64,000 nt of DNA from Chitinophagales bacterium (GCA_034440455.1 JAWXCB010000066.1:2807-66806); one strand, 5' to 3'. Counted from the stretch's first letter, positions 2,196 to 38,901 are shown. Program-made: numbers and translations. The notes: generated by a model not told the origin, from the letters alone.

Positions 2196-3089
2196 TTACC
2201 GCTCCCGCACAATCCTCTTTGCCACACTCCCTTTCCCGCTCTTGATTTGCAAAAGGTAAATGCCTTCGGGATATTGCCGCATCTCTATTTGCATGTTGCC
2301 GGAATGTTTTTCGCAAAACAATTCAACGCCCAGCATGGAGGAAAGGCACACTTCCACTTCCTCATTTGAAGGCAGGTCAACAAACAGAACATCCGAAACG
2401 GGGTTGGGGTATGTTCTTACTTCCGCTTCTAAAATATTTTTATCCGAGAGATAAATGATGGTGTCATAAAAGCAATCATTGTAAGCCGGGTTTTGATAAA
2501 CCAGTGCCCCGTTTTCAGAATAACAAAGCACTCGGTATTCCCCACCGTCAAAAACAAAGTCACGCTCAAAAGGGAAATAAAAAGTCGGGTTGATATTCCC
2601 TATTCCTTCTATCCCTATTTCACTTTGATAGTTACCACAATCGTCACAACTGAGAAACATTCTTTTTCTTGTCCTTCCCAAAATCACTGTGTCAACAGAG
2701 TTCACTTTCAGAAAAGAGAAATAATTTGGTCCGTTCCTCACATCAAAAGAATCACCTACATTCAGAGTGAAATCATAGAGCAGACGCTCTTGCTGCTGGT
2801 AGTTGAGATAATAGACCTTGCCGGAATCCTGCCTAACCCAAACCGGGTCACCTCCTGAACTAATGGTTTGATAAGTATGGTTATCAAAAACAGCATCACC
2901 TGTCACAGAATAGGTTCCAGTGGATATCTCAATTATAAGTGGAGAAGACATTGACATTAGACTTTCTGTAATCTGCTACACTCCCGAAGTGTCGGCAAAG
3001 CGATGGCTTTGCTGCGCGTTTGCTTGAAAGCAAAGCAGAAGAAAACAGGTGAACGGCAGAAGTGTTTGTGAGATTAATTTGCAAAACAT
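2196..3089 (-). pseudogene. T9SS C-terminal-domain cargo protein interrupted by an in-frame TAG
   Basis: The C-terminal ~80 aa (YPNPVSDVLFVDLP...GIYLLQIKSGKG) form a T9SS sorting domain. The body ORF 2196-2957 has no signal peptide. An ATG at 3089, in the same frame, encodes MFCKLISQTLLPFTCFLLLCFQANAQ. It is separated from the body by a single TAG (plus-strand cta at 2976-2978). Confidence 0.6.
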
Positions 3090-12995: not shown

Positions 12996-13094
12996 AAAAT
13001 GAATTTCATTTTTTTGGGGTTCAAAAGTAGGGTTTTGGGTTGATTTCGGGTGAGGAATAACAACAGGTCGATCTTCCGAGGCAATAAAAAAAGA

Positions 13095-13523
13095 GGCTGC
13101 ATGACTGTAAGCCGGGTTCTGTTTCCCTGATTGCTCAGGGCTTCTATCATTTATCTGGGGCTGTAATCACTTACAGCCTCTATCAGCCAACCCCCTCCGG
13201 CATCCGCTTGCGCGAATTTGAGCGAGCCGCTCTGCCTGCCGAAACAGACCGGAGTATATTTGGCTTTTCAACTTGCAAGGTTTACCCCACCAGTGTGTTA
13301 CCACAACGATGCGTGAGCTTTTACCTCACGTTTTCACCTTTACCCACCGAAGCTTTAGCGAAGGCGGGCTTTACCAGCCTCGCAAAACTTCAACAGGCAG
13401 TTATTCTCTGTGGCACTCTCTGTATTCCGCTTGCGCGAAACCCCTGCCGTTAGCAGGTGCAACGCTCTTTGTTGCCCGGACTTTCCTCCCCGATTGCTCA
13501 AGGCGATAGAACATCATGCAGCC
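13095..13523 (-). ncRNA. rnpB: RNase P RNA (bacterial type A)
   Basis: The minus strand reads GGAGGAAAGTCCGGGC (plus 13474-13489) and ACAGAACCCGGCTTA (plus 13108-13122), the universal CR-I and CR-V motifs. A 10-bp P1 helix pairs GGCUGCAUGA (5' end, 13523-13514) with UCAUGCAGCC (3' end, 13104-13095). There are two GCAA-tetraloop hairpins. The ends are approximate. Confidence 0.85.
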
Positions 13524-18128: not shown

Positions 18129-18165
18129 ATTTCATTGAAACGTAAAGCTATTTTTGCCACCGCCA

Positions 18166-19191
18166 ATGACTGCCATTTCAAAAAAGAAGAAACACTTTCT
18201 TATTAACGAACAATTACGGGGGTATCTGAAAAAATACGACCGTGAATCAAAACTGCCCGTGAGCTACAATGATTTGCTGCGCTACAACGAAACTGTGCCG
18301 CACCGCGATAAGAGCGGGAAAGAAACGCTGTGGGAAACGGTGATTTACGACCGCTCCATGACAGATGAGTTGAACAAGGGGCTAACGATGATTTATTCCA
18401 TCCTGAAGTCGGATGGAGATACGGATGTTTTGGAGCACCTTTATGTTTCGCGCATTGACTATTGCACCTTTGGGAATTCAAATCCGTTTCGTGTTCGCAT
18501 TGTCAACCTGTTTAATGACAACTATGATTATTTCTATGTAAAGAAAGATGACGCTTCGCGTGTTTATGGGCTTGAATTAGAGCATATCCTTTCTCCCAAC
18601 CGCATCAATTATTTTGTGGACGATGACACGCTGATTGAAGAACACATTCCCGGCATTCCCGGTAATGACTTTATTGCGGGTTATCTAAAAAAACCAGAAT
18701 GCAATAAAGTGCGCATCGCCAAAGAATTTGTGAAATTCAACGAGCGCTGCTTTGTGCGGCTGCTGGGCGACATGCGTTCCTATAATTATGTCGTTGACAT
18801 CACGCCCGATTTTGAGGATGAGCAATACCGCATTCGCCCGATTGATTTCGACCAGCAATCTTATGAAGGGAAGAAAACGATGTATCTCCCGCAGTTTTTC
18901 AAAGAAAACAACGCGGTGGTCAACCTGTGCATGGAATTGATGACTCCCGAAACATTCAGCCAATACCGCAACGAGGAAAGAACGTTGATTGCGCACCGCT
19001 TAAAAGCCGAACGTACCCGTTTTGAAGAACTGCTGGCATGCATGAAAAATGATACGATTTCACTTGCTGACAAAGAAGAACAACTCAAACAGGAACTTGC
19101 AAAGCACCACAACGACCCCGCCTTCAAAGCTTGTAAGAACATGGGCGAAATTGTGAGCTATCACCTTGAAGTGGTGCTTGCGGGTAAATAG
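18166..19191 (+). CDS. hypothetical protein with kinase-like catalytic-loop pattern
   Basis: 341-aa cytoplasmic ORF from ATG 18166 (the ORF track starts at TTG 18154). LLGDMRSYNYVVD ... IRPIDFDQ resembles the D-x4-N catalytic loop plus metal-binding Asp of atypical kinases. No family assigned. Confidence 0.5.
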   Translation: MTAISKKKKHFLINEQLRGYLKKYDRESKLPVSYNDLLRYNETVPHRDKSGKETLWETVIYDRSMTDELNKGLTMIYSILKSDGDTDVLEHLYVSRIDYCTFGNSNPFRVRIVNLFNDNYDYFYVKKDDASRVYGLELEHILSPNRINYFVDDDTLIEEHIPGIPGNDFIAGYLKKPECNKVRIAKEFVKFNERCFVRLLGDMRSYNYVVDITPDFEDEQYRIRPIDFDQQSYEGKKTMYLPQFFKENNAVVNLCMELMTPETFSQYRNEERTLIAHRLKAERTRFEELLACMKNDTISLADKEEQLKQELAKHHNDPAFKACKNMGEIVSYHLEVVLAGK

Positions 19192-19272
19192 CTTTAGTTT
19201 TAACGAAATTTTTAGCAAACGGCTTGACATTCTTGATTTTCTTCCGTTTCTTTACGAGCGAAAATTGTACAG

Positions 19273-19326
19273 ATGTATTCAAGGGTCTCCATTGTTATCG
19301 TCATTAGCGTCACGCGCAAGCGGTGA
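19273..19326 (+). promoter_or_regulatory. ilv operon leader peptide (MYSRVSIVIVISVTRKR)
   Basis: 17-codon ORF with 7 Ile/Val codons. It lies upstream of a terminator and of ilvE. Confidence 0.65.
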
Positions 19327-19351
19327 GGATGGATACGTATTAATAAAACGG

Positions 19352-19390
19352 GAGCCATTCTCACAGCGGGAATGGCTCTTTTGTTTTTTA
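19352..19390 (+). terminator. attenuator terminator of the ilv leader
   Basis: GAGCCATTC (19352-19360) / GAATGGCTC (19370-19378) stem followed by TTTTGTTTTTT. The alternative pairing 19323-19332 with 19355-19364 is possible. Confidence 0.7.
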
Positions 19391-19418
19391 AAGGTTTGAG
19401 TATTAAAAAACCCAGCGT

Positions 19419-20309
19419 ATGTATTTCTCAGACAAAACAGTCGTCTTCGTAAACGGAAAGTTCGTGCAGGCGAAAGATGCTACGGCAAGTCTTTACAACC
19501 AGACAATTCATTATGGCAATGGAGTGTTTGAAGGGATACGCTCTTATTCTAATCCCTTTGGTACAAGAATTTTCAAGGCAAAAGAGCATTATGAACGTCT
19601 CAGAGAGTCTGCCAAAAAGATGCATATGAAATTTGATTACTCCGTGCAAGACCTCGTGGATGCTTCTTATGAATTGCTCAAGAAAAATAACCTCACGGAT
19701 GCTTACATCAGACCGGTTGTTTATTCAGGCATCAATATGAAATTGCTTCCGAGTAATGAGTCAAATATTTTTATTGGTGGATGGAAATGGGGGAGGTATT
19801 TGGGCAACAAGTTGTTGAATGTTACCGTGTCGCCCTATGAGCGTCCAAATCCTCATTCCTGCCATGTGGAAGCGAAGGTGACGGGGCATTATGTGAACTC
19901 AATTCTTGCAACAACAGAAGCAAGAAAAAGAGGCTTTGACGAAGCACTGTTGCTTGATTTGAATGGCTATGTTGCCGAAGGTCCCGGAACGAATTTTTTC
20001 TACGAAAAGAACAAGGTGTTATACACAGCGCCATTAGGAAGCATTCTCGCGGGGATTACGCGCGCAACCGTAATGGAAATTGCAAAGGACCTGCATCTCG
20101 AAGTGAAAGAAAAATTCTTCACTACCGATGAGCTTTTTGAAGGCGACAGTGCTTTTTTCACAGGAACAGCGTCAGAGGTTGCGGGCATCGCAAGCATTGA
20201 CGGTTATAAATTTCCTTTAGCATGGGAGAATTCATTGGGAAATATTTTGGCGCAGAAATATAAACAGTTAATTAAAACAGGAGATTACACACATAGCACG
20301 ATAATATAG
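19419..20309 (+). CDS. ilvE: branched-chain amino acid aminotransferase (class IV)
   Basis: 296 aa. Fold-type IV aminotransferase pattern (EGIRSY..., GTNFF, GITR, TGTA). Confidence 0.9.
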   Translation: MYFSDKTVVFVNGKFVQAKDATASLYNQTIHYGNGVFEGIRSYSNPFGTRIFKAKEHYERLRESAKKMHMKFDYSVQDLVDASYELLKKNNLTDAYIRPVVYSGINMKLLPSNESNIFIGGWKWGRYLGNKLLNVTVSPYERPNPHSCHVEAKVTGHYVNSILATTEARKRGFDEALLLDLNGYVAEGPGTNFFYEKNKVLYTAPLGSILAGITRATVMEIAKDLHLEVKEKFFTTDELFEGDSAFFTGTASEVAGIASIDGYKFPLAWENSLGNILAQKYKQLIKTGDYTHSTII

Positions 20310-20383
20310 TCGCGGGTTTACGGGTCGCGAGTTACGAGTCAATAAAATGGTTTGACTCGTGACTGAATGACTCGTGACTCGCA
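20310..20383. repeat. stutter/hairpin repeat between ilvE and ilvD
   Basis: GCGAGTTACGAGTC (20327-20340) is the near-perfect complement of GACTCGTGACTCGC (20369-20382). There is also a tandem GACTCGTGACT. Confidence 0.6.
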
Positions 20384-20398
20384 GACCAAACAGTACAA

Positions 20399-22078
20399 AT
20401 GAACGAACTCAATAAATATTCTCGCACAATCACGCAAGACGAAACGCAGCCTGCCGCGCAAGCGATGCTGCATGGCATCGGTTTGTCAGATGCGGATATG
20501 AAAAAAGCGCAGGTAGGAATTGCCAGCACCTGGTATGAAGGTAATACCTGCAACATGCACCTGAATGATTTGTCAGATTGGGTTAAAAATGGAGTAAAAG
20601 AATCAGGATTTGTTGGTTTGCGATTCAACACGATTGGCGTGAGCGATGGTATCTCGATGGGCACAAAAGGAATGCGCTACTCGCTTCCTTCTCGCGAAAT
20701 CATTGCCGATTCAATTGAAACTGTCGTCAGTGCGCATTGGTATGATGGCGTGATTACGATTGCCGGTTGTGATAAAAATATGCCCGGAGCATTGATTGCG
20801 ATGGCGCGCTTGAACCGTCCGTCACTGATGGTGTATGGCGGTACGATTGCTTCGGGAAAATACAAAGGTAAAAAGTTGGATGTTGTTTCTGCGTTTGAAG
20901 CATTAGGTGAAAAGTTTGCCGGAAAAATTTCAGATGAAGATTTTCACAATATCATAAAAAATGCCTGTCCCGGGGCGGGAGCATGTGGCGGTATGTACAC
21001 TGCAAATACAATGGCATCCGCGATTGAAGCGATGGGAATGAGTTTACCTTATAGCTCATCCAATCCTGCGTTGAGCGCGGAAAAGAAAAACGAGTGTGTG
21101 CAAGCGGGGAAAGCCATTCGCTTGTTACTTGAAAAAAATATCAAGCCGAGCGATATCATGACGAAGAAAGCGTTTGAAAACGCAATGACGATTGTAATGA
21201 TTCTGGGTGGTTCCACGAATGCAGTGCTGCATTTGATTGCAATGGCAAAAGCTATTGGAGTGAAATTGACGATTGATGATTTCCAGAAAATCAGCGATAA
21301 GACCCCTTTCCTTGCAGATTTAAAACCAAGCGGAAAATTTTTGATGGAAGATTTATACGCAGTGGGCGGAGTGCCGGCTGTACTCAAAATGTTGCTGAAA
21401 GAAAAAATGATTCATGGAGATTGTCTGACAGTAACCGGAAAAACGATTGCCGAAAATCTGAAAGAAGCAAAACCGCTTTCCGATGGACAGCAAGTGATTC
21501 TTTCTATTAAAAATCCAATTAAGAAAAGCGGGCACATTCAAATCTTGTATGGCAATCTCGCGCCACAAGGTTCTGTCGCAAAGATTACCGGAAAAGAAGG
21601 GGAAAAATTTGAAGGCACAGCGCGGGTGTTTGATGACGAGTTCGCAGCGATTGAAGGTATCCAAAAAGGAAAAGTGAAAAAGGGAGATGTCATTGTCATC
21701 CGCTACGAAGGACCCAAAGGCGGACCCGGTATGCCGGAAATGCTGAAGCCAACTTCTGCAATCATGGGCGCGGGATTAGGAACTGAAGTAGCGCTGATTA
21801 CCGATGGCAGATTTTCAGGTGGCACACACGGTTTTGTAGTAGGACATATCACACCTGAAGCACAGGAAGGCGGGTTGATTGGCTTGTTGAAAAATGGCGA
21901 CCGCATCACGATAGATGGAACAAAGAATAAAATTCAGGCGCATCTCACAGGCGAAGAAATAAAAAAACGAAAAGCAAATTGGAAACCGCGCAAGATAAAA
22001 GTGAAAAACGGATACTTGTATAAATATATGAAGTTGGTTTCTTCGGCTTCGGAGGGATGCGTGACGGATGGGGACTAA
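20399..22078 (+). CDS. ilvD: dihydroxy-acid dehydratase
   Basis: 559 aa. The [22 protein letters not shown] and TDGRFSGGT motifs are all present. Confidence 0.95.
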
Positions 22079-22103
22079 GAATAGAAATTAACTTTGATCG
22101 AAT

Positions 22104-22406
22104 ATGAAGCTCGAAAAAAATAAGCTGCAATCCTTAAAGGTTTTTTTCTCGGACAAGCCGGTGAAGCGAGCATACTTATTTGGCTCTTTTGCGCGGGGTG
22201 ATGCAAATGAGAGGAGCGATGTAGATATTTTGGTTGAGTTGGACTATTCGCAAAAAATCGGATTGAAATTTCTGAGCATGCAAATCGCATTGGAAGAAAT
22301 GCTTGAAAGGAAAGTGGACTTTGTTACGGATCGCTCGCTTGAGGCTTTTATGAAGCCATTTGTTGACAAAGAAAAAATGCTTCTTTATGAAAGGCAAAGC
22401 GGCTGA
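22104..22406 (+). CDS. MNT-type nucleotidyltransferase (antitoxin of a HEPN/MNT pair)
   Basis: LFGSFARGDANERSDVDILVE, i.e. the GSxxRG...SDxD motif. Confidence 0.8.
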   Translation: MKLEKNKLQSLKVFFSDKPVKRAYLFGSFARGDANERSDVDILVELDYSQKIGLKFLSMQIALEEMLERKVDFVTDRSLEAFMKPFVDKEKMLLYERQSG

Positions 22407-22734
22407 CAAAACGCGACTCCGGCATATTCTTGAAGCAATCAGGGAAATTGAAAAGTATCTCGCTGTTGCCGGAAGTGAGGATGATTTTTACAATAATTCC
22501 GCATTGAAGTTTGCAACAGTTAAACAATTGGAAATTATCGGTGAAGCGGCAGGGAAACTTTCTAACGAAATATAAAAACGTGCAGTAGAATTAAACTGGA
22601 AAGCCATCATTTCAATGCGTAACAGGTTAGTGCATGATTATGAAAATATTGATTTCACGATTGTCTATCAGATTGCAGCAGATGAGTTACCTGCCTTGAA
22701 AGAAGCAGTTGATAAAATGCTTCTTGCTTTTTAA
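22387..22734 (+). pseudogene. HEPN (DUF86) toxin gene with an in-frame TAA
   Basis: The single frame reads MKGKAADKTRLRHILEAIREIEKY...IIGEAAGKLSNEI * KRAVELNWKAIISMRNRLVHDYENID...LLAF. The stop is at 22573-22575. The catalytic R-x4-H motif (RNRLVH) lies downstream of it. Confidence 0.7.
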
Positions 22735-22757
22735 TTAGTTAAAAGAATATAAATTCA

Positions 22758-24494
22758 ATGACCGAAACCCTCACAAAAAAGAAGTCAACTCAAAAGCAGC
22801 CCAAAAAGAAAACCATCACCGGCTCTGAAGCAGTGATTCTCTCCTTGCTTGAAGAAGGCGTTGACACCATCTTCGGCTACCCCGGTGGCGCGATTATGCC
22901 GATTTATGATGCGCTCTATCATTACCGGAATAAAATCAATCACATCCTCGTGCGCCATGAACAAGGCGCAACACATGCTGCTCAGGGATATGCCCGCGTA
23001 AAGGGAAAGGCAGGAGTTTGCTTTGCAACATCAGGTCCCGGAGCTACAAATTTGATTACAGGAATTGCTGATGCGCAGATTGATTCTACTCCAATGGTGT
23101 GTATCACAGGGCAAGTGCCGGTTCATCTTCTCGGCACGGATGCTTTTCAGGAAACAGATGTGATTGGCATTTCAATGCCCATCACAAAATGGAATTACAA
23201 AGTCACCAAGCCTGAAGAAATTCCGTGGGCGATTGCACAAGCGTTTTATATCGCCAACAATGGTCGTCCCGGTCCTGTGCTGATTGACATTGCAAAGAAT
23301 GCGCAATTCGGAGAACTGGAATATTCGTATGAAAAGTGTCAGAAGATTCGCAGCTATCGCCCCAAGCCGAAGGCGCATGAAAAGGATATTACTGCGGCCG
23401 CTGAACTTATTAATCAGGCGAAAAAACCATTCTTACTTATTGGTCATGGTGTGTTGATTTCAGGCGCAGAAAAGGAGTTGCAAAAATTTATTGAGAAAAC
23501 AGGAATCCCTTCCGCATCAACGCTGCTTGGATTATCTGCAATGCCATGTGACCATCCGCTGTATGTCGGCTATCTCGGGATGCATGGCAATTATGGACCT
23601 AACATCAAAACAAACGAATGTGATTTACTTATTGCTATCGGAATGCGCTTTGATGATCGCGTGACGGGTGATTTAAAAAAATATGCGCGACAGGCAAAAG
23701 TGATTCACATTGAAATTGATCCTTCGGAGATTGATAAAAACGTAAAGACTACTGTCGGGATAAATGCAGACGCGAAAGAAGCGCTGAAAGCATTGCTTCC
23801 TAAAGTGAAAAAAAATAATCACAAAAAGTGGTTGCAGGAATTCAGGGATTGCGACAAGATTGAATTTGATAAAGTAACCCGCCATGAATTTTTTCCCGGA
23901 AAAGGAGAAATAAAAATGGCGGAAATCATCAACGTGCTTTCTGAAAAAACGAAAGGAGAAGCGGTGCTTGTGACAGATGTGGGTCAGCACCAGATGGTCG
24001 CAACCCGTTATTACAAATTCAAAAAACCAAACAGCAACATTTCATCCGGTGGTCTTGGTACAATGGGTTTTGCATTGCCCGCAGCGCTGGGCGCTAAAAT
24101 CGGAAGACCTGATAGACAAGTAGTTGCCGTGATTGGTGATGGCGGTTTCCAAATGACGTTGCAGGAGATGGCGACTATTTTTCAAACGCAAGCCGCAGTG
24201 AAAATCATTATTCTGAACAATGACTTTCTTGGCATGGTGCGTCAGTGGCAGCAATTATTTTTCGAGAAAAGGTATTCTTTCACCGAAATCGTGAATCCTG
24301 ATTTCGTTGCGCTTTCAAAGGCATTCGGAATTGAGGCGCACCAACTTTCTAAGCGCGAGAATATTAATTCATCAATAGATAAACTGCTTTCACACAAAGG
24401 ACCTTATCTGCTTGAAGTGAAGGTGGAGAAAGAAGAGAATGTTTTCCCGATGGTTCCTTCGGGGGCGAGTGTTTCTGAAATAAGACTTGAATAA
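22758..24494 (+). CDS. ilvB: acetolactate synthase, large (catalytic) subunit
   Basis: 578 aa. ThDP enzyme: FGYPGGAIMPIYD and the GDGGFQM...NN ThDP-binding motif. Confidence 0.92.
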   Translation: MTETLTKKKSTQKQPKKKTITGSEAVILSLLEEGVDTIFGYPGGAIMPIYDALYHYRNKINHILVRHEQGATHAAQGYARVKGKAGVCFATSGPGATNLITGIADAQIDSTPMVCITGQVPVHLLGTDAFQETDVIGISMPITKWNYKVTKPEEIPWAIAQAFYIANNGRPGPVLIDIAKNAQFGELEYSYEKCQKIRSYRPKPKAHEKDITAAAELINQAKKPFLLIGHGVLISGAEKELQKFIEKTGIPSASTLLGLSAMPCDHPLYVGYLGMHGNYGPNIKTNECDLLIAIGMRFDDRVTGDLKKYARQAKVIHIEIDPSEIDKNVKTTVGINADAKEALKALLPKVKKNNHKKWLQEFRDCDKIEFDKVTRHEFFPGKGEIKMAEIINVLSEKTKGEAVLVTDVGQHQMVATRYYKFKKPNSNISSGGLGTMGFALPAALGAKIGRPDRQVVAVIGDGGFQMTLQEMATIFQTQAAVKIIILNNDFLGMVRQWQQLFFEKRYSFTEIVNPDFVALSKAFGIEAHQLSKRENINSSIDKLLSHKGPYLLEVKVEKEENVFPMVPSGASVSEIRLE

Positions 24495-24503
24495 AATAAG
24501 ACA

Positions 24504-25079
24504 ATGAGCAATCTCAATTCCATTTACAACGACCAAACCGATTTTTCGCGTGAGCGGGAATTCACGATTTCCGTTTTTACCGAAAATAATATCGGTCTGT
24601 TGAATCACATCACTATTGTGTTCACGCGCAGAAATTTGAATATCAATAGTCTTACAACTTCAGAATCAGAGATTAAAGGCATTTTTCGTTTCACCATCAC
24701 CATTCGCACTACGCACGACACTGTTAAAAAACTTATCAAGCAATTGGAGAAGATAGTGGATGTCATCAAAGCGTTTGTACACGAGGAGAAAGATATTATC
24801 ACTCAGGAAATTGCACTCTACAAAGTTCCGGTGAAGGCAGCGCACAACGGAGTGAACATCGAGCAAATCGTTCGCGAAAGTCACGCGCGCATTCTGGCGA
24901 TTGAGAACGGATATATCGTGATTGAAAAAACGGGACATCAGCGTGATACGCAGAAGTTGTTTGAGAAATTAGAACCGCACGGTGTGCTGGAGTTCGCACG
25001 TTCGGGAAGGGTTGCAGTAATGCGCTCGGCAGATAACTTGGATAAATTTTTAAAAGAGATAGAGAAGAAGCATAAATAA
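24504..25079 (+). CDS. ilvN: acetolactate synthase, small (regulatory) subunit
   Basis: 191 aa. ACT-domain start FTISVFTENNIGLLNHITIVFTRRNLNI, immediately after ilvB. Confidence 0.85.
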   Translation: MSNLNSIYNDQTDFSREREFTISVFTENNIGLLNHITIVFTRRNLNINSLTTSESEIKGIFRFTITIRTTHDTVKKLIKQLEKIVDVIKAFVHEEKDIITQEIALYKVPVKAAHNGVNIEQIVRESHARILAIENGYIVIEKTGHQRDTQKLFEKLEPHGVLEFARSGRVAVMRSADNLDKFLKEIEKKHK

Positions 25080-25102
25080 ACCATAAACAACAAACGAATA
25101 AC

Positions 25103-26140
25103 ATGGCACAAATTTATTTTGGCGGAGTTCTTGAAAACGTAGTGACGCGAGAAGAATTCCCTTTGAAAAAAGCGCTCGACATTCTGAAAGATGAAACAAT
25201 CGCTATTCTCGGCTATGGCGTTCAGGGTCCGGGGCAGGCGTTGAATCTGAAAGACAATGGATTCAACGTGATTGTCGGGCAGCGCAAAGGCACAAAAAGC
25301 TGGGACAAAGCAGTGAAAGATGGTTTTGTTGAAGGCAAAAATCTTTTTGAATTGGAAGAAGCAGCAAACAAAGGAACCATTCTGCAATTCCTTTTATCTG
25401 ATGCAGGACAAATTTCGTTTTGGCCCACGCTGAAAAAGTATCTTACGAAGGAGAAAACTCTTTATTTCTCCCACGGCTTTGGTATCACTTACAACGACCA
25501 AACCGGAATCAATCCACCTGCCGATGTAGATGTAGTGCTTGTTGCACCGAAAGGTTCAGGCACGAGTCTGCGCAGAAAATTCTTGCAAGGCAAAGGCTTG
25601 AATGCAAGTTTTGCGATTTATCAGGATGCAAGTGGTAATGCAAAAGACAAAGTCGTTGCGCTGGGTATCGGTATCGGTTCAGGATTTTTGTTTGAAACAA
25701 ATTTCAAAAAAGAAGTTTTCAGCGACCTTACCGGTGAGCGAGGAACATTAATGGGTGCACTTGCAGGAATTCTTGAAGCGCAGTATAATCTATTGCGCAA
25801 AAAGGGACATCTGCCGAGTGAAGCATTTAATGAAACAGTTGAAGAACTCACCGAAAGTTTGATTTTGCTTGTTGCTGAAAATGGCATGGATTGGATGTTT
25901 GCGAATTGCTCCACCACTGCACAACGTGGCGCTTTGGATTGGCGGCACAAATTCAGAAAAGCGGTTGAGCCTGTGTTTGAAGAACTGTATGAAAGCGTAG
26001 CCTCCGGGGAGCAAGCGAAAATTGTTATCAAAGCAAACAGCGACCCGGATTATCGCGCGAAACTTGAAGAGGAATTGAAAGAAATGCGTGAATCGGAAAT
26101 GTGGAAGGCGGGAGCGCAGGTGCGGAAGTTGAGACCGTAA
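25103..26140 (+). CDS. ilvC: ketol-acid reductoisomerase
   Basis: 345 aa. ILGYGVQGPGQALNL Rossmann motif and the HGF...APKG.G segments. Confidence 0.95.
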   Translation: MAQIYFGGVLENVVTREEFPLKKALDILKDETIAILGYGVQGPGQALNLKDNGFNVIVGQRKGTKSWDKAVKDGFVEGKNLFELEEAANKGTILQFLLSDAGQISFWPTLKKYLTKEKTLYFSHGFGITYNDQTGINPPADVDVVLVAPKGSGTSLRRKFLQGKGLNASFAIYQDASGNAKDKVVALGIGIGSGFLFETNFKKEVFSDLTGERGTLMGALAGILEAQYNLLRKKGHLPSEAFNETVEELTESLILLVAENGMDWMFANCSTTAQRGALDWRHKFRKAVEPVFEELYESVASGEQAKIVIKANSDPDYRAKLEEELKEMRESEMWKAGAQVRKLRP

Positions 26141-26189
26141 ACTCAAGTTGCCTGGCTATTTAAACAATGAAAATCTGTAATTTGGAGCT

Positions 26190-26423
26190 ATGCTAAACAT
26201 TCAAAATTATATTGAGTCAGACCCCAAAATCATAATGGGCAAGCCTGTCATTAAGGGAATGAGAATAACGGTTGAGTTGATTTTGGAAAAATTGTCGGAA
26301 GGGGAAACGGTGGAAGATTTATTGGAAGCGCATCCCCGCCTTACGACTGAGGGCATCAATGTCGCGCTTGCTTTTGCGGCTCATAACCTCAGAGCGGATA
26401 ACATCTATCCAATAGCAAGTTGA
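26190..26423 (+). CDS. DUF433-family protein (antitoxin-like)
   Basis: DPKIIMGKPVIKGMRITVELILEKLSEGETVEDLLEAHPRLT matches the DUF433 pattern. Confidence 0.75.
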   Translation: MLNIQNYIESDPKIIMGKPVIKGMRITVELILEKLSEGETVEDLLEAHPRLTTEGINVALAFAAHNLRADNIYPIAS

Positions 26424-26776
26424 TGCTCCAGTTTGTTGCTGATAAAGGTGTTGACGCGCCAATTGTGCATGTCTTGGGAGGTGCGGGGTATAATGTTCTT
26501 TACATCGCAGAAGAAGCCCCAAAGACAGGCGATGATAAAGTTCTTCTCATGGCAAACGACCAGCAACGTATCTTAATCACTCTTGATAAGGATTTCGGTG
26601 AGTTGGTTTATAGGTTGCATCAATCACATACAGGGGTTATGCAGGTGAGATTAGGCGGATTCAAGCCGAAACGTAAAGCTGAGATTGTGTTGGAAGCGGT
26701 TAAAAAGCATGAAGAAAAGTTGATTGATGCTTTCACTGTAATTCATAAAGGAATAATTAAGCTAAGAAACAGGTGA
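26423..26776 (+). CDS. DUF5615-family PIN-like protein (toxin-like partner of DUF433)
   Basis: FVADKGVD...GYNVLYI...DDKVLLMANDQQRILITLDKDFGELV pattern. ATG 26423 shares one base with the upstream TGA. The ORF track starts at TTG 26420. Confidence 0.7.
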   Translation: MLQFVADKGVDAPIVHVLGGAGYNVLYIAEEAPKTGDDKVLLMANDQQRILITLDKDFGELVYRLHQSHTGVMQVRLGGFKPKRKAEIVLEAVKKHEEKLIDAFTVIHKGIIKLRNR

Positions 26777-28029
26777 ATTCAATTAAACTCATTCCGATTG
26801 AGCAAATCCGAAAAGCGCATGAGCGGCTGTGCAAAATTGTAACGCGCACCCCGCTCGTGTACAGTGCGAATCTCTCGCAAGAGTATGGATGCAATGTTTA
26901 TCTGAAACGCGAGGATTTACAGGTGGTACGCTCTTACAAATTGCGTGGCGCTTACAACAAAATTTCAACCTTACCGAAAGAAGTAACTGCAAAAGGTGTG
27001 GTGTGTGCAAGCGCAGGTAATCATGCGCAGGGCGTTGCATACTCGTGCAACGCGCTCGGCATTCACGGAAAGATTTACATGCCGAATCCCACCACCAAAC
27101 AGAAAGTGGACAAGGTGAAGATGTTCGGGAAAGAATTTGTCGAAGTGATTCTCACGGGCGATACCTACGATGATGCGTATCGCGAAGCAATGGAGGATTG
27201 CAATCGCAATGGCAAAACATTCATCCATCCTTTTGAGGATGAAAAAGTGATGGAAGGGCAGGGCACCGTTGGCTTAGAAATTCTCGAAGACATCCAGGTG
27301 CCGATTGATTATTTGTTTGTGCCGATTGGCGGGGGAGGCTTGGCATCGGGAACAGGAAGTTGTTTCAAACAATTAAGCCCTGATACAAAAATCATCGGGG
27401 TGGAACCGGCAGGCGCGCCTGCAATGGAGAAATCGCTGAAGCTGGGCAACGTGGTAACGCTCGAGGAGATTGATAGCTTCGTAGATGGCGCAGCAGTAAA
27501 GAGAGTAGGGGAGAAGACATTTGAAATCTGTAAAGAAGTGCTGGATGATATGGTGCTTGTTCCTGAGGGAAAAGTTTGCACAATTATCTTGCGTCTGTAT
27601 AACGAAGAAGGAATTGTGGTAGAGCCGGCTGGCGCGCTCACTGTCAGTGCGCTGGGTTTTTGCAAAGAAAAAATAAAAGGGAAGAATGTAGTGTGCGTGG
27701 TGAGCGGTGGCAACAACGACATCATGCGTACTGCTGAAATCAAAGAGCGCTCGATGCTCTATGAAGGCTTGAAGCATTACTTCATTATCCGCTTTCCGCA
27801 ACGTGCGGGCGCATTGCGTGAGTTTTTAAATCATGTGCTCAGTCCAACAGACGACATCTGCCATTTTGAATACACCAAAAAGAACAGCCGTGAAAACGGT
27901 CCCGCTTTAATCGGCATTGAATTGGTAAAGCGCGATGACTATGACGGATTGATTGAGCGAATGAAAAAGTATCACATCAATTTCGAAGAGGTGAACAGTA
28001 ACCCGAATCTGTTTAATTATTTTGTGTAG
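26773..28029 (+). CDS. ilvA: threonine ammonia-lyase (threonine dehydratase)
   Basis: 418 aa. PLP-lysine motif VVRSYKLRGAYN, SGGNND, and a C-terminal ACT-like regulatory domain. The GTG start overlaps the upstream stop (GTGA). Confidence 0.9.
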   Translation: MNSIKLIPIEQIRKAHERLCKIVTRTPLVYSANLSQEYGCNVYLKREDLQVVRSYKLRGAYNKISTLPKEVTAKGVVCASAGNHAQGVAYSCNALGIHGKIYMPNPTTKQKVDKVKMFGKEFVEVILTGDTYDDAYREAMEDCNRNGKTFIHPFEDEKVMEGQGTVGLEILEDIQVPIDYLFVPIGGGGLASGTGSCFKQLSPDTKIIGVEPAGAPAMEKSLKLGNVVTLEEIDSFVDGAAVKRVGEKTFEICKEVLDDMVLVPEGKVCTIILRLYNEEGIVVEPAGALTVSALGFCKEKIKGKNVVCVVSGGNNDIMRTAEIKERSMLYEGLKHYFIIRFPQRAGALREFLNHVLSPTDDICHFEYTKKNSRENGPALIGIELVKRDDYDGLIERMKKYHINFEEVNSNPNLFNYFV

Positions 28030-33055: not shown

Positions 33056-34027
33056 ATGAGAAAAACTCTTTCTCTGTTTTTTTTATTTTTAGTTTATCAA
33101 TTTTCTGCTGCGCAAAACTCGCCTGTCCTTTCACATTTCATGTTTTTTAAGCAACAGGTAAATCCTGCATCGGTTGGAAGTGAAGACGCTTTGGATATTG
33201 CCGCAGTATATCGTGCACAATGGGTAGGGATTAGTGGAAACCCAACCGTTCAGGCGTTGTCCGTTCAGTCTCCGCTTAATGTGCTTAATTCCAGCGCGGG
33301 TCTTATTGTCATTAATGAAATGCAAGGCGAGGAACGCTATACGTCTGCAATGCTTTCGTATGCGTATCGCCATTCGTTTAAAAAAATCAGTTTAGCAGGA
33401 GGTGTAAGCGCAGGCATTTTTCAGAGAGCGATTGATGGAAGTAAATTGAGGTCACCTGAGGGCAATTATGCAGATGGAGGAATTAACCATGGAGATGATT
33501 TTATTCCTGATAAATTATCAAGCGCTGTTGCTGCTGATTTGAATGTAGGTATTTATTTAAGTTCAAGAAAACTATATGCTGGTATCTCGGCAAATAATGT
33601 TTTAGAAAGCAACGTGAAATTAGTTGGGCAAGGATTGCAAACGGAGATTGAAAATCCCCGCTATTACACGGCTGTGGCGGGTTACAGGATAAAAGTGGGA
33701 AAGAAACTAAACCTTATTCCAAACGTATCATTGCGCACTGATTTTATCAACACCCAGGCTGAAGTCAATACAATTTTACAATTCAAAGACAATATCTACG
33801 GGGGCATGTCGTTTAGAGGGTTTGCACCAAACTTAAAAGATGCAGTTGTGTTGATGGCAGGTTTCAAAATATTTAAGAACTTGAGAGTGGGATATAGTTA
33901 TGATATAGCGCTTTCATCGTTGAATGAAGTCAACAGCGGTTCCCATGAAGTTTATTTGCGCTACGCGATAAATATCAAGGAACTTATGAATCCGGGTAAA
34001 ATAATTTACAACCCGAGAAATTTGTAG
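33056..34027 (+). CDS. PorP/SprF-family T9SS membrane protein
   Basis: 323 aa. Signal peptide, then the SHFMFFKQQVNPASVGS...YRAQWVGISGNP pattern. It lies directly upstream of gldK. Confidence 0.8.
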   Translation: MRKTLSLFFLFLVYQFSAAQNSPVLSHFMFFKQQVNPASVGSEDALDIAAVYRAQWVGISGNPTVQALSVQSPLNVLNSSAGLIVINEMQGEERYTSAMLSYAYRHSFKKISLAGGVSAGIFQRAIDGSKLRSPEGNYADGGINHGDDFIPDKLSSAVAADLNVGIYLSSRKLYAGISANNVLESNVKLVGQGLQTEIENPRYYTAVAGYRIKVGKKLNLIPNVSLRTDFINTQAEVNTILQFKDNIYGGMSFRGFAPNLKDAVVLMAGFKIFKNLRVGYSYDIALSSLNEVNSGSHEVYLRYAINIKELMNPGKIIYNPRNL

Positions 34028-34189
34028 GCAGGTAAATTGTTTGGAAAATATTATTTTGGCGGGCGACTATGTTGATTGTGGAAGGTGTTGGAAATAAAGG
34101 GGAGAAGATTTTTTTGTTTTTTGCCAAAACGTGTATATTTACACGCCTTATCAGGGGCGTTTACCTTTAAGTTTAAAACAAACATTAGA

Positions 34190-35467
34190 ATGAAAAGGAA
34201 TCTCGTAATCTTATCAGCAATTACAGCGCTGTTTCTTACAGGCTGTAGCAGCGGTTACAACGGACAACTCATCGGAACGCAAGACCGTCCAGGTTGGACA
34301 AATGTTATTCCATTTGGAATGATTTATGTTCCATCCGGCACATTGCATATCGGTCCCAGCGATCAGGATGTGAATAACTCCATGATTCAAAGAAGCAAAT
34401 CTATTTCGATTCAGGGCTTCTATATGGATGACACAGAAATTACTAACAACGAGTATCGCCAGTTTGTGAACTGGGTAAGAGACTCTATTACTGCAAAAAC
34501 AATCGGAGAAGATTATCTCTTGTCTGACGAAAATGATGACGGCAGTGTTGACGAAGGAAGGATTGATTGGGAAAGAATGCAAAATTTTGATTATGCTGAT
34601 GAGGAAAATGCGGAAACAATTGAAGACATGTATTATGCGGAGAACGAAAGATTGATGGGTAAAAAAGAGTTTGATGTCAGCAAGTTCACGTATGAGTATT
34701 ACTGGGTGGACATCAAAGAAGCGGCTAAAGTTTCAAATAGAGGAAAGCCAAGAAGCGAATTTTTCAAGAAAGCCAGCGTGAATGCCTATCCCGATACGCT
34801 CGTTTGGGTGAGGGATTTCTCTTACTCTTATAATGAGCCGATGACGAGAAATTACTTTTGGCATCCTGCATTTGATGATTATCCAGTTGTAGGTGTTACT
34901 TGGGATCAGGCAAACGCTTTCAGCGCGTGGAGAACAAGATTTTGGGATGATTATAGAACCCAAAAAGGAGAAGTTATCAATGATCCATTCAGACTGCCGA
35001 CAGAACAAGAATGGGAATATGCTGCAAGGGGTGGAAAGAAGTTGGCTCCTTATCCGTGGGGAGGTCCTTACTTAAGAAATACAAAAGGGTGTTTGTTGGC
35101 AAACTTCAAACCTGGTAGAGGAAATTATCCTGAGGATGGTGGATTCTACACTGTTAGAGCCGATGCTTATTGGCCCAATGATTATGGTCTTTACTGCATG
35201 GCAGGAAATGTTTCAGAATGGACATCTACGGCTTTTTATGAAAATGCCTATGCATTCGTGCATGATTTAAACCCTGATATCAGATATGATGCAGACGAGA
35301 ATGACCCGATTACAATGAAGAGAAAAGTAATCAGAGGCGGCTCATGGAAAGATATCGGATATTATCTGCAAACGGGAGCGAGGCACTGGGAATATCAGGA
35401 CTCTGCGAAATCCTATGTTGGGTTCAGAAACGTACTTACCTTCCTCGGAAGATCATTTAATGATTAA
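34190..35467 (+). CDS. gldK: gliding motility/T9SS lipoprotein GldK (FGE-sulfatase/SUMF1 fold)
   Basis: Lipobox LFLTGCSSG and FGE-like segments (RGGSW, GFR). First gene of the gldKLMN order. ATG 34190. Confidence 0.85.
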   Translation: MKRNLVILSAITALFLTGCSSGYNGQLIGTQDRPGWTNVIPFGMIYVPSGTLHIGPSDQDVNNSMIQRSKSISIQGFYMDDTEITNNEYRQFVNWVRDSITAKTIGEDYLLSDENDDGSVDEGRIDWERMQNFDYADEENAETIEDMYYAENERLMGKKEFDVSKFTYEYYWVDIKEAAKVSNRGKPRSEFFKKASVNAYPDTLVWVRDFSYSYNEPMTRNYFWHPAFDDYPVVGVTWDQANAFSAWRTRFWDDYRTQKGEVINDPFRLPTEQEWEYAARGGKKLAPYPWGGPYLRNTKGCLLANFKPGRGNYPEDGGFYTVRADAYWPNDYGLYCMAGNVSEWTSTAFYENAYAFVHDLNPDIRYDADENDPITMKRKVIRGGSWKDIGYYLQTGARHWEYQDSAKSYVGFRNVLTFLGRSFND

Positions 35468-35549
35468 TGAATTGGTAAGTTTTTTTATTTCAATCAGATA
35501 TTGTACTTCATTTTAACCTTTAAATAAAATTTAAAACACAATACTAATT

Positions 35550-36356
35550 ATGAGAAATCTTGCAATTTTCTTTGAATCTGAAAAAGGAAAGCGCCTTAAA
35601 AACATGATTATCGGTGTAGGTGCTGCCGTGGTGATGATGGGTGCATTGTTTAAATTGGAATCATGGCCTGGTGCGAGTCAAATGTTGATTGCCGGTCTTA
35701 GTGTAGAAGCATTCATCTTCATGTTGCAAGGGATATTGCCCCCGCACAAAGATTATTACTGGGAGAAGGTTTACCCTGACCTTGATGTTGCTCCTGAGTT
35801 GGAAGGCGGTGCAGGAGCGCATGGTTTTAAAAAATCTATTACTGAAGAATTAGACAGCATGTTAGAGAAATCCAACGTGGAGTCAAAGTTGATTGAAAGA
35901 CTTGGCGCAAATTTGGGTAAATTAGGAAGCAGTGTTGAGAAAATGGCTGAAATGGGAGATGTGTCCGCAGCAACTTCTCAATATGCGGCTAAAGCTAAAG
36001 AAGCTACTATTGCATTGAGCAGTATGAAAGACGCATATGTTGGCGCAACCAGTTCAATTACTGCGCTTGCAGGCGCTGCTGGGGATGTTAAGAATTTTCA
36101 TACGCAGATGCAGTTGGTTACAAAAAACTTATCGTCTTTGAACTCAATCTACGAAGTGGAATTGCAAGATGCTACTAAACACATTTCGGTAATTAATAAA
36201 TTCTACGGAACACTTGTTGATACAACTGAAAACCTTAAAGGTTCGGCTAATGATGCGAAGGCTGCTAAAGAACAGATGAGCAAACTTGCCGGCAACTTAG
36301 CATCCTTGAATGCAGTTTACGGCAATATGTTATCGGCAATGGCTGTAAGACAATAA
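35550..36356 (+). CDS. gldL: gliding motility/T9SS motor protein GldL
   Basis: Two N-terminal TM helices (GVGAAVVMMGALFKLESWPGA...AGLSVEAFIFML) and a YPDL segment. Position within gldKLMN. Confidence 0.8.
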   Translation: MRNLAIFFESEKGKRLKNMIIGVGAAVVMMGALFKLESWPGASQMLIAGLSVEAFIFMLQGILPPHKDYYWEKVYPDLDVAPELEGGAGAHGFKKSITEELDSMLEKSNVESKLIERLGANLGKLGSSVEKMAEMGDVSAATSQYAAKAKEATIALSSMKDAYVGATSSITALAGAAGDVKNFHTQMQLVTKNLSSLNSIYEVELQDATKHISVINKFYGTLVDTTENLKGSANDAKAAKEQMSKLAGNLASLNAVYGNMLSAMAVRQ

Positions 36357-36414
36357 GGATTAAAGCACTTCGTTTAGAAATAATTTCCCCACTTAAAAAA
36401 AATTCTGAAAAGAA

Positions 36415-38061
36415 ATGGGTATTCCTAAAGAGCCACGGCAACAGATGATCAACATGATGTATCTGGTGCTCACCGCCCTTCTCGCACTGAACATCTCTGC
36501 CGAAGTGTTGAACGCTTTTAAACTTGTAAGCGATGGCATGCAAACAAGCAACAATGCGATTGACAAGAAGAACTTTTCTTTGATGGACGCATTTCAAAGA
36601 CAAAGTGATAATGACAAAGATAAAACCGCCAAGTATATTCGCGATGCTAAAAAAGCCATGATATATTCGGATCAGTTTGTCGTAAATGTGCAATCCATAA
36701 GAGATTTGGTGATTAAGAAGAGTGGTGGGTTTATTGATAATGATAGTATATCCGGTGAGTTAAAAGGCAAGCGCAATTACGATGTGCCGACACGATTATT
36801 AGTTGATGAAGAAAATGGACGTAACTTGAAAGCTGCAATTACAGCACTAAGAGATTCGTTGCTTGCTCTTCCTGCTTTAGATCAAGCTGATAAAGATGCG
36901 CTTTCAAAACAATTTACTCTCAGTACGGAATATAATGAGAGTGCTGCAAAGAAATTAGGCAAAAAAAGTTGGGAAGAATATCTTTTTGACCACGTTCCCG
37001 TTATTGCTGTAAATACAATTCTCACTAAATTTCAGGGAGATGCAAAAAATTCATCCGGTTTGGTAGTTGAAACGCTTTACAAGAAGATTGGTGCTGCTGA
37101 TTACAAATTCGATGCGCTTTCTGCCAAAGTAATTGCGCCCAGTAGTTATGTGCTTGCCGGTCAGGAATATAAAGCAGACATTTTCGTTTCTGCAACAAGT
37201 TCAACTCAAAATCCCGAAGTTTTTCTTGGATCTTTCGATCCGAAATTTAATTTGAATACAAAAGCGGTAGGTCCACTTCCTAAGTTGGAAGAAAATCCTT
37301 TGAAGCCAGGCTTTGAAACAGTCCCTGTGAGTGGTGGAATGGGTCTATATTCGGATAAATCGTCTGCGGTAGGGATGAAAGAAAAAACGGGTGTTATTAA
37401 AGTAAAGAAGCCACAAGGCGATGGTTATGATTATTACCCGTTTAAATTAGAATACCAAATTGCGGAAGCGGGTCTTGTAGTTTCTCCCGATAAGATGAAC
37501 GTGTTCTATATTGGCGTAGATAATCCTGTATCTGTTTCAGTTCCTGGATTTCCGGCTGATAAGGTAACTGCTGCGTTTAATAAAAACGGAACACTCAAGC
37601 AAGTAAAGCCCGGTAACTTCATTGCAAATGTTACAACTGTAGATTTAAAAGGAGAAACAGAAGTTCAGGTGTATGTTCAAACACCTGATGGTTCAAAAAA
37701 AATGATGGGTTCAAAGCCTTTCCGTATCAAACGCGTTCCGGATCCGACTGCTATGATTGGTCCTGATAAAGGGGGTAGCGTAAAAGCTCCAAACTTCAAA
37801 GTACAAAAGGGGATGCAAGCGGTGCTTGAAAATTTTGATTTTGATATTCGTTTTAATATCGTGAGTTTTGAAATGACTTATGCTGCCGCTCGTCAGGATT
37901 TGTTGAGTACCTCAACGGACGGTCCACTTTTTTCACAAAAGATGACTGATTATCTTTCAAAGGCTAAACCGGGAGATGTTTTTTACTTTGATAAAATCAA
38001 AGCGAAAGGTCCTGATGGAACTATCAGAAATCTTCCTGGTATTGTGTTCAAATTAATGTAA
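36415..38061 (+). CDS. gldM: gliding motility/T9SS protein GldM
   Basis: N-terminal PRQQMINMMYLVLTALLALNIS signature and a length of 548 aa. Confidence 0.85.
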   Translation: MGIPKEPRQQMINMMYLVLTALLALNISAEVLNAFKLVSDGMQTSNNAIDKKNFSLMDAFQRQSDNDKDKTAKYIRDAKKAMIYSDQFVVNVQSIRDLVIKKSGGFIDNDSISGELKGKRNYDVPTRLLVDEENGRNLKAAITALRDSLLALPALDQADKDALSKQFTLSTEYNESAAKKLGKKSWEEYLFDHVPVIAVNTILTKFQGDAKNSSGLVVETLYKKIGAADYKFDALSAKVIAPSSYVLAGQEYKADIFVSATSSTQNPEVFLGSFDPKFNLNTKAVGPLPKLEENPLKPGFETVPVSGGMGLYSDKSSAVGMKEKTGVIKVKKPQGDGYDYYPFKLEYQIAEAGLVVSPDKMNVFYIGVDNPVSVSVPGFPADKVTAAFNKNGTLKQVKPGNFIANVTTVDLKGETEVQVYVQTPDGSKKMMGSKPFRIKRVPDPTAMIGPDKGGSVKAPNFKVQKGMQAVLENFDFDIRFNIVSFEMTYAAARQDLLSTSTDGPLFSQKMTDYLSKAKPGDVFYFDKIKAKGPDGTIRNLPGIVFKLM

Positions 38062-38073
38062 AAATTATTGAGT

Positions 38074-38901
38074 ATGAAATTACTTACATCAGCTTTTTTG
38101 ATTTCAATTTTGATTGTTTCAAGTTTGTTTGCGCAGACGGTACAATCACAAACTCCCAGAGATGGAGCTTATGATGAGGTTACCATTGAAGAAAGACAGA
38201 TTGTTCCTTATGACCATATTCGTGAAGCTGACGTGTTTTGGTCAAAAAGGATTTGGAGAGTTGTTGATACTCGTGAAAAAATGAATCTCTCGTTCAAGTA
38301 TCCTAAACAATATTTGGTAGATATCCTTAGGAAAAATGCTATGGAGGGAGTTATTACAGTGTATGACCCGATTGATGATGAGTTCACAAGACCAAATACA
38401 CCTGATGAGGTTGCAAAATTGGGAGTAGGTGAAGCGGATACAATTCGCGTAATTGACCCGGTTACGCTCGAAGAAAAAATTGAAATTACAAAACCTGAAT
38501 TTGATGCCAATAAGGTTACCAAATTCAGAATAAAAGAAGATTGGATTTTTGATGAAGAAACTTCTACGATGGTTGTCCGCATTATCGGAATTGCTCCTAT
38601 CATGGAAGAATATAACTCAGATGGTTCATTCCGAGGTGATAAGGTGTTGTTTTGGGCTTATTATCCGGAACTGCGCCCTGTGTTAGCTAAGTATCAGGTG
38701 TTCAATAACCAGAATGATGCCGTTACCATCAGTTGGGAAGACCTCTTTGAGATGCGCTATTTTTCCAGCTACATTTACAAAGAATCAAATGTGCATGATC
38801 GCAGAGTGCAGGATTACGTTTCAGGCGTGGATGCATTACTCGAATCAGACAATATCAAGAACAAGATTTTTACCTTCGAGCATGACCTTTGGTCATACTG
38901 A
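38074..38901 (+). CDS. gldN: gliding motility/T9SS protein GldN
   Basis: Signal peptide, the KRIWRVVDTREKMNLSFKYP segment, and last position in the gldKLMN order. Confidence 0.8.
   Translation: MKLLTSAFLISILIVSSLFAQTVQSQTPRDGAYDEVTIEERQIVPYDHIREADVFWSKRIWRVVDTREKMNLSFKYPKQYLVDILRKNAMEGVITVYDPIDDEFTRPNTPDEVAKLGVGEADTIRVIDPVTLEEKIEITKPEFDANKVTKFRIKEDWIFDEETSTMVVRIIGIAPIMEEYNSDGSFRGDKVLFWAYYPELRPVLAKYQVFNNQNDAVTISWEDLFEMRYFSSYIYKESNVHDRRVQDYVSGVDALLESDNIKNKIFTFEHDLWSY

Follow-up and report, generated by a model that had tools for sequence, protein, structure and literature searches.

How does an uncultured Chitinophagales lineage adjust the transcription of its branched-chain amino acid (BCAA) operon? 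The question is raised by a 64,000-nucleotide (nt) stretch of DNA from a Chitinophagales bacterium (GCA_034440455.1 JAWXCB010000066.1:2807-66806), hereafter the window, in which a short open reading frame (ORF) rich in isoleucine (Ile) and valine (Val) codons precedes ilvE. An earlier note, made from the sequence alone, had singled out positions 19273-19390 as a candidate attenuator. We consider it highly probable, on the strength of the sequence, that a classical ribosome-mediated (leader-peptide) transcription attenuator controls ilvE-ilvD-ilvBN-ilvC-ilvA in this bacterium. The sequence-level hallmarks of such an element are all present, namely an ORF with control codons, a terminator, an antiterminator, an anti-antiterminator that overlaps the control codons, and a geometry that links them to the ribosome. 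The helices are balanced in energy, and helices, geometry and ORF alike are conserved. The mechanism itself is classical and not new; what is added here is a model at the level of individual helices, an alignment of the clade and a view of the spread of such leaders in Bacteroidota.

The leader ORF and its alternative helices

The features of the leader are as follows.

19224..19254, + strand: putative promoter, with TTG at 19224-19226, a 20-nt spacer and a T(T/A)nnTTTA box at 19247-19254
19273..19326, + strand: leader ORF, read directly from the sequence and intact in 13/13 aligned sequences
19285..19311, + strand: control codons Val5, Ile7, Val8, Ile9, Val10, Ile11 and Val13, read directly from the sequence
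19288..19301, + strand: segment 1, the 5′ strand of the 1:2 anti-antiterminator, inside the Ile/Val codons; found in the minimum free energy (MFE), centroid and RNAalifold structures
19320..19333, + strand: segment 2, GCGGUGAGGAUGGA, which holds the leader stop codon and has segment 1 or segment 3 as partner; its CGGTGAG is invariant in 13 sequences
19350..19362, + strand: segment 3, the terminator's 5′ arm; positions 19355-19364, with an extension at 19366-19367, can instead pair with segment 2
19368..19380, + strand: segment 4, the 3′ arm of the terminator hairpin, in a 13-pair stem
19379..19389, + strand: terminator U-tract, TTTTGTTTTTT; in all relatives the stem is followed by a T-rich tract

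The leader ORF (19273-19326, +) comprises 17 codons and a TGA stop, ATG TAT TCA AGG GTC TCC ATT GTT ATC GTC ATT AGC GTC ACG CGC AAG CGG TGA, and encodes the peptide MYSRVSIVIVISVTRKR. Ile and Val account for 7/17 codons (4 Val and 3 Ile) and leucine (Leu) for none, a composition that fits the Ile/Val pathway genes downstream. The earlier note had described a 17-codon ORF from ATG 19273, with seven Ile or Val codons and a stop at 19324-19326, and all of these coordinates match the sequence as read over 18900-19560. On both strands of the 64-kb window, we could identify no second non-genic short ORF in which an amino-acid run is followed by a strong terminator; the other two matches of that scan are in-frame 3′ ends of genes.

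The leader RNA (19260-19400, 141 nt) folds at -44.3 kcal/mol (z = -4.3), a stability reached by 0/200 shuffles. Folding of this interval had been proposed as a check in the earlier note; both the MFE and the centroid fold contain two hairpins, 1:2 plus 3:4, and the alternatives were refolded under ribosome masks. The 3:4 hairpin forms an intrinsic terminator that spans 19350-19389, with a stem of 13 pairs (19350-19362 with 19368-19380, 6 of them G-C), a loop of 5 and an energy of -19.4 to -20.4 kcal/mol. The pairing of GAGCCATTC (19352-19360) with GAATGGCTC (19370-19378) that was noted before is thus part of a longer stem. The T-tract TTTTGTTTTTT (19379-19389) does end, as also noted, 29 nt before the ilvE ATG at 19419. 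We considered whether the hairpins could control ilvE translation directly and rejected this, because the terminator stops 29 nt short of this ATG, clear of the initiation region.

The proposed antiterminator is likewise present in the sequence, with GTGAGGATGG (19323-19332) complementary to CCATTCTCAC (19355-19364) over 10 base pairs including one G-U. The bare 10-base-pair helix has an energy of -13.5 kcal/mol, which becomes -20.2 kcal/mol with flanking pairs, and the helix is extended by 19320-19321 with 19366-19367. Segment 2 of the window is complementary to the terminator arm at z = -3.2, a level that 1% of shuffles reach. Antiterminator (2:3) and terminator are mutually exclusive, as both use segment 3. 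Moreover, we find a helix that the earlier note did not contain, in which 19288-19301 pairs with 19320-19333 (1:2, -19.1 kcal/mol). The three alternative helices, 1:2, 2:3 and 3:4, are energetically balanced. The 1:2 hairpin, beside 2:3 and 3:4, thus completes an attenuator of four segments.

The position of the ribosome decides which of these helices can form. We masked the RNA with a ribosome footprint of 30 nt (an assumed size) and refolded the remainder in silico. For RNA that extends to 19368, placing the aminoacyl site (A-site) on Ile7, Ile9 or Ile11 leaves segment 2 free and 2:3 as the minimum-energy fold; with the A-site on Val13 a 9-base-pair version of the antiterminator still forms. 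Of the control codons, the five in a row from Ile7 to Ile11 (19291-19305) are the best placed. Segment 2 contains the stop codon, and the terminator arm begins 24 nt past the end of that codon, such that a ribosome at UGA covers segment 2, the antiterminator is absent and the terminator arm (from 19350) is unobstructed. The ribosome-free, full-length leader folds as 1:2 + 3:4 at approximately -44 kcal/mol. The geometry anticipated in the earlier note, in which a ribosome at the stop codon favours the terminator and a stall on the Ile/Val codons frees the antiterminator, is borne out by this masking.

A course of events can be proposed from these folds. Transcription would probably start near 19261, and the first ribosome would translate the 17-codon leader as the polymerase, presumably coupled to it, proceeds to the terminator. 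When charged Ile- and Val-tRNA are plentiful, the ribosome would reach the UGA and cover segment 2, 3:4 would form and transcription would stop at the U-tract, yielding an attenuated RNA of approximately 125-130 nt whose 3′ end is expected within 19379-19389. When charged Ile- or Val-tRNA is scarce, the ribosome would stall on Ile7-Val8-Ile9-Val10-Ile11, which coincide with segment 1. This would leave segment 2 free to pair with the emerging segment 3, no terminator would form and the polymerase would enter ilvE. Were the leader left untranslated, 1:2 and the terminator would form and transcription would stop, a state known as superattenuation.

Conservation among close relatives and across Bacteroidota

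Is the element maintained outside this one genome? As close relatives we took loci whose ilvE protein is 69-86% identical, of which 12 were distinct; the resulting alignment, A2, holds 13 sequences. A metagenome scan with a single ilvE protein returned 2 loci, one of them identical to L089. In 12/12 relatives an intact mini-ORF of 17-20 codons, rich in Ile, Val and Leu, occupies the equivalent place, and its peptides read as follows.

L081: MLLVSLIILVIRVTRQR
L096 and L097: MKQVVSIIIVISGSRKR
L088: MNRIVSIIIVVGICPKR
L086: MNSAITIIIVISVTRQR
L087: MLCVVSIIIIVISGTRWR
L089: MKHIVSIIIVVIDSRQR
L090: MKYLVSILIEVICARQR
L085: MNGSLAILIVVLMHQRPR
L083: MKHIVNILICAGLPLSGRYR
L093: MSRIFPILIVAFSLQYR
L094: VNRILLILIMALNLRQR (GTG start)

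The columns of the start codon (ATG in 12 sequences, GTG in 1) and the stop codon are fixed in A2. The TGA is invariant and lies within an invariant CGGTGAG, such that the ORF ends in CGG-TGA in 13/13 sequences. Indels within the ORF measure 3 or 9 nt only, and those outside it 1, 2, 2, 2, 4 and 13 nt. Such a pattern is the signature of a translated frame. We also considered whether the conserved C-terminal R-x-R before the stop could be a nascent-peptide arrest motif. This was rejected as unnecessary because the codons concerned form two RNA features, the invariant segment CGGTGAG and a small GCG/CGC hairpin.

The helices are conserved alongside the frame. In the terminator 97% of cells are paired in the relatives, with compensatory changes at 3 pairs. 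The antiterminator 2:3 is paired in 95.4% of cells, compared with 39-50% in slid controls, and the 1:2 helix in 88.8%, compared with 34-66%. Position 19357 bears on all states: its A/G polymorphism is matched by a compensating change in the terminator (G-C in 9 sequences, A-U in 4), and the U of segment 2 opposite 19357 pairs with either base. Moreover, RNAalifold returns 1:2 + 3:4 when no structure is supplied.

The same alignment bears on where the transcript begins. A promoter-like block upstream of the ORF is conserved across the 13 sequences, its TTG and TTTA(C) being invariant or nearly so. It resembles the Bacteroidota promoter type, -33 TTTG / -7 TAnnTTTG, whose consensus is named in PMC9723704, and would place the transcription start near 19261, approximately 12 nt before the leader ATG. 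In a sigma-70 promoter scan, whose model does not cover the Bacteroidota type, promoter-like sites were no commoner than in shuffles; the scan is uninformative because Bacteroidota promoters belong to another type. The conserved block lies between the leader and an upstream gene (18154-19191) on the same strand, and with no other obvious terminator before 19350 the hairpin could be thought to terminate that gene, leaving the Ile/Val ORF and the alternative pairings to chance. We attach next to no probability to this. In the relatives the upstream neighbour differs (FA_hydroxylase, SnoaL, CHAD, esterase) and is often on the opposite strand, sometimes divergent, yet the ORF and hairpins stay with ilvE; synteny and conservation together effectively refute it. 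Moreover, chance is excluded by the controls on the fold, on the ORF run (below), on the complementarity and on the window scan.

Beyond the close relatives, we surveyed one genome per species by an ilvE profile scan, which yielded 53 usable Bacteroidota loci and 20 from other phyla. A short ATG-initiated ORF was sought ≤350 nt upstream of ilvE, with ≥6 Ile/Val in an 8-codon window. Such a mini-ORF precedes ilvE in 34/53 Bacteroidota loci, compared with 2/53 on the reverse complement, 7/1060 (0.7%) in shuffles and 0/20 in loci outside the phylum. Thus the alignment of ilvE upstream regions that the earlier note had called for proved positive both in the 12 close relatives and across Bacteroidota. 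A terminator is detectable after the run in 32 loci, and in 27 of these a segment of the spacer is complementary to its 5′ arm at z < -2 (median z = -3.2). This segment lies between -20 and +13 nt relative to the leader stop codon. Placement of the stop codon within or beside the antiterminator strand thus recurs as a design, though the sequences are not alignable between classes. Representative leader peptides are given below.

Chitinophagaceae: ...IIIVVVIIIPA.GGG
Flavobacterium: MKNLATSIIVVIIIIRSM
Cyclobacteriaceae: MINIITISLIIVVVIMITTPGMV
Fulvivirga: MKNQIIISLVIVSVIIMAAKGDW

On balance we favour the view that most of the sampled Bacteroidota ilvE loci use the lead ribosome to sense the need for ilv transcription, with the stop codon in or near the antiterminator strand, and that the 17-codon unit of approximately 130 nt in the window is a minimal version of this design. 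Of the leaderless loci, at least 4 (L018, L034, L042 and L043) have ilvE approximately 5-70 nt behind a gene of approximately 380-395 residues whose product ends in ...ELRKST(I/L/V)I. There, ilvE directly behind that gene is therefore internal to a larger operon; by its C-terminal motif the gene is possibly leuB.

The survey also speaks to the function of the ORF. The leader peptide is hydrophobic with a basic C-terminus, and membrane peptides of such a size exist; it might have a function of its own as a small hydrophobic peptide, perhaps as a micropeptide of the membrane, with the hairpin as its own terminator and read-through into ilvE constitutive or controlled elsewhere. This is very unlikely, as across the phylum the sequence outside the Ile/Val run is not conserved, the length varies from 16 to 40 residues and the ORF occurs specifically before ilvE. 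The conserved C-terminal Arg-TGA is accounted for by the invariant CGGTGAG with its two pairing partners, and the statistically significant complementarity between stop region and terminator arm in 27/32 loci would have no role.

Neither a small peptide nor leader translation would be needed if a trans-acting sensor switched the hairpins, be it an RNA-binding protein that binds amino acids, an uncharged tRNA in the manner of a T-box, or a riboswitch for a small molecule, with the mini-ORF incidental. Terminator/antiterminator pairs do serve many sensor types, translation of the leader is predicted, and Bacteroidota have no Shine-Dalgarno sequence that would make translation of an ORF behind a 12-nt leader obvious. 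We nevertheless judge a trans-acting sensor improbable. Rfam at gathering score over the whole window returns no leader, T-box or riboswitch family, and nothing at the leader; at E ≤ 10 over 19150-19450 there is again none of these families, with chance matches on the terminator hairpin only. The hairpins are separated by a short stretch of low conservation, which leaves no space for an aptamer. Moreover, such a sensor would not explain why, in 13 sequences, the ORF is open with start and stop columns fixed and in-frame indels only, and it offers no reason for phylum-wide Ile/Val runs amid diverged nucleotide sequences.

Several points weigh against ribosome-mediated attenuation at this locus. 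Once the leader RNA is complete, its terminator state is thermodynamically the more stable, whether or not a ribosome is stalled on it. For read-through the antiterminator must therefore form first, a dependence on co-transcriptional kinetics that would correspond to the classical kinetic model. The antiterminator has no double (compensatory) substitutions in the 13 sequences, only G-U-compatible changes, and its support is therefore conserved pairing and not covariation. Conservation of segments 1 and 2 is ambiguous because both overlap the coding sequence and stop codon, and could partly reflect the peptide and not the RNA. The promoter is suggested by the conserved block alone; translation of the leader, read-through that depends on Ile/Val and a premature 3′ end near 19389 are likewise predicted. 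To our knowledge, Bacteroidota lack Shine-Dalgarno-led initiation, and the literature searched yields no demonstration of coupling between lead ribosome and polymerase in this phylum.

Comparison with known attenuators

The trp, ilvGMEDA (ilvL) and ilvBN (ivbL) leaders of E. coli and Salmonella are the basis of the classical 1:2 / 2:3 / 3:4 model of attenuation, and by mechanism the window's element belongs to this trp/ilv/his/leu type. Like these, the window has a leader ORF with codons for the end product and its control codons in segment 1. It shares with them four segments with mutually exclusive hairpins, a stop-codon ribosome that blocks segment 2, and an intrinsic terminator with U-tract just before the first structural gene. 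The Rfam families of enterobacterial amino-acid leaders cover Leu, Thr, His, Trp and Phe leaders; the window element shows no sequence or covariance-model similarity to these systems and is not a homologous member. Its peptide has 17 codons and no Leu codon, compared with 32 codons for ilvL. Further differences are the stop codon, which is embedded in segment 2 whereas theirs precedes it, a promoter that is putatively of the Bacteroidota type, the absence of a Shine-Dalgarno sequence and the gene order ilvE-D-B-N-C-A.

The closest precedent lies within the phylum. From transcriptome maps of Flavobacterium psychrophilum, Guerin et al. (2021, ISME Commun) reported an Ile-rich leader-peptide attenuation element before ilvE (PMC9723704, SI D9, Table S7); leaders rich in Trp, Phe/Tyr and His are named there on the same transcriptomic basis (PMC9723704). 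The leader before ilvE has 25 residues in a 5′ region of 437 nt, for which no helix-level or comparative analysis was given (PMC9723704). In the transcription start site table for that species a second ORF is seen past the 25-residue leader, ATG ACA ACA AAT ACA ATT ATT ATT ATT ATT AGC ATT ATT ATT ... (PMC9723704). A peptide near-identical to the F. psychrophilum leader is present in our survey at locus L069: MNNLIIIPSIIIAIVIITSAGGMV. The window shares with F. psychrophilum the phylum, ilvE as first gene, an Ile-rich mini-ORF in a structured 5′ region and the proposed mechanism. It fits an F. psychrophilum-type definition, that is, a mini-ORF with an Ile/Val run and a structured, terminator-bearing 5′ region directly before a Bacteroidota ilvE. 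The two differ in class (Chitinophagia versus Flavobacteriia) and in layout, with one unit of approximately 130 nt in the window versus a 437-nt region with apparently two tandem leader ORFs; neither peptide nor RNA is alignable, and only the Ile/Val run is common to both.

Elsewhere in Bacteroidota the record is sparse. The B. thetaiotaomicron transcriptome of Ryan et al. (2020) only notes small ORFs "reminiscent of leader peptides" (PMC7366714), and Naville and Gautheret (2010) mention neither Bacteroidetes nor ilv. The earlier note had held that Bacteroidetes examples are only comparative predictions. This is nearly right: we found no mutational or biochemical test of attenuation in Bacteroidota in the literature searched, but the F. 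psychrophilum report does draw on transcriptome maps (PMC9723704).

Attenuators of ilv operons outside Proteobacteria provide a further comparison. The ilvBNC attenuator of Corynebacterium glutamicum is described by a three-hairpin model with experimental mutational support (PMC11857589, PMC10272879), and actinobacterial leader-peptide attenuators more broadly are treated in PMC1262725. The window's element resembles these in joining a BCAA-rich leader or upstream ORF to alternative hairpins on an ilv operon. The C. glutamicum element, with its mutational support, differs in phylum, operon (ilvBNC) and sequence. In Staphylococcus aureus the ilv-leu operon has a Leu-rich attenuator peptide together with CodY (PMC5794164). 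In common with the ilv-leu leaders of Firmicutes (the Bacillus T-box and S. aureus), the leader of the window would couple premature intrinsic termination to charged tRNA. The Bacillus T-box, unlike the window, which has no T-box match, senses uncharged tRNA by RNA-RNA contact, and the peptide of S. aureus is Leu-rich where that of the window is Ile/Val-rich.

If the element works as proposed, it could become the first ribosome-mediated attenuator of Bacteroidota to be dissected mechanistically, and it would supply the regulatory logic of the BCAA operon in an uncultured Chitinophagales lineage. The survey points to leader-peptide attenuation of ilvE in several Bacteroidota classes, beyond one Flavobacterium. 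Attenuation works only if the first ribosome keeps pace with the polymerase, and these elements are therefore a testable read-out of coupling; if borne out, they would give direct evidence of physical or kinetic transcription-translation coupling in Bacteroidota. Attenuators in Bacteroidetes/Chlorobi were reportedly predicted by Vitreschak et al. (2004) and by Lopatovskaya et al. (2010). The compact 130-nt element and the alignment of its clade could serve as the starting point for an Rfam-type model and help the annotation of small ORFs in this phylum.

Variant leaders and the gene neighbourhood

Which genes would the attenuator control? The genes downstream of the leader, assigned by Pfam, are as follows.

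19419-20309, + strand: ilvE
20399-22078, + strand: ilvD
22758-24494, + strand: ilvB
24504-25079, + strand: ilvN
25103-26140, + strand: ilvC
26773-28029, + strand: ilvA

From their orientation alone, ilvE-D-B-N-C-A (19419..28029) would form one transcription unit. The ilvE protein has a 100% identical counterpart in a metagenome-assembled genome of a Chitinophagales bacterium. Two gene pairs resembling toxin-antitoxin systems are inserted within this operon. The pair between ilvD and ilvB consists of an MNT-type nucleotidyltransferase (22104-22406) and a truncated HepT-like ORF (22360-22575), the latter matching profile positions 1-47 of 120 only. Between ilvC and ilvA lie a DUF433 gene (26190-26423) and a DUF5615 gene (26420-26776). 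The relative L081 (86% identical) also has a nucleotidyltransferase after ilvD, and in L087 ilvD abuts ilvB.

The survey loci contain variants of the leader arrangement. In some Flavobacteriia and relatives (L048, L045, L012, L069 and L001) two complete Ile/Val leader units occur in tandem before ilvE. In the Chryseobacterium locus L048 (approximately 2707-2967, with ilvE at 3001) the first unit, MNFTNQKNIIVISIINTIVIQ, has its terminator at -186..-160, and the second, MYLLAIIIIVIIIPLRL, at -60..-34. Two leader-peptide attenuators in series would make the response steeper or let it take two inputs. In Chitinophagaceae (L016, L023, L030, L031, L033, L037, L046 and L047) a common peptide, ...IIIVVVIII(P/S)...GGG, lies approximately 180-330 nt before ilvE. 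In most of these leaders, the segment able to pair with the CCCGCCTCC terminator arm lies 4-20 nt ahead of the leader stop. As this segment falls at Gly (GGN) codons, the Chitinophagaceae antiterminator strand would be coding sequence.

The gene upstream of the leader (18154-19191, same strand) encodes a 345-residue protein with no Pfam match; a 341-residue protein, likewise without a Pfam match, occurs at the equivalent place in L086, L087, L088 and L096. Elsewhere in the window, a bacterial RNase P RNA of class A is found at 13092-13522 (- strand; 235.5 bits, full-length match). A type IX secretion/gliding cluster at 33056-38901 encodes PorP/SprF, a protein with an FGE-sulfatase domain (GldK-like), GldL, GldM and GldN; gldL, gldM and gldN together with PorP/SprF are a gene set typical of Bacteroidota.

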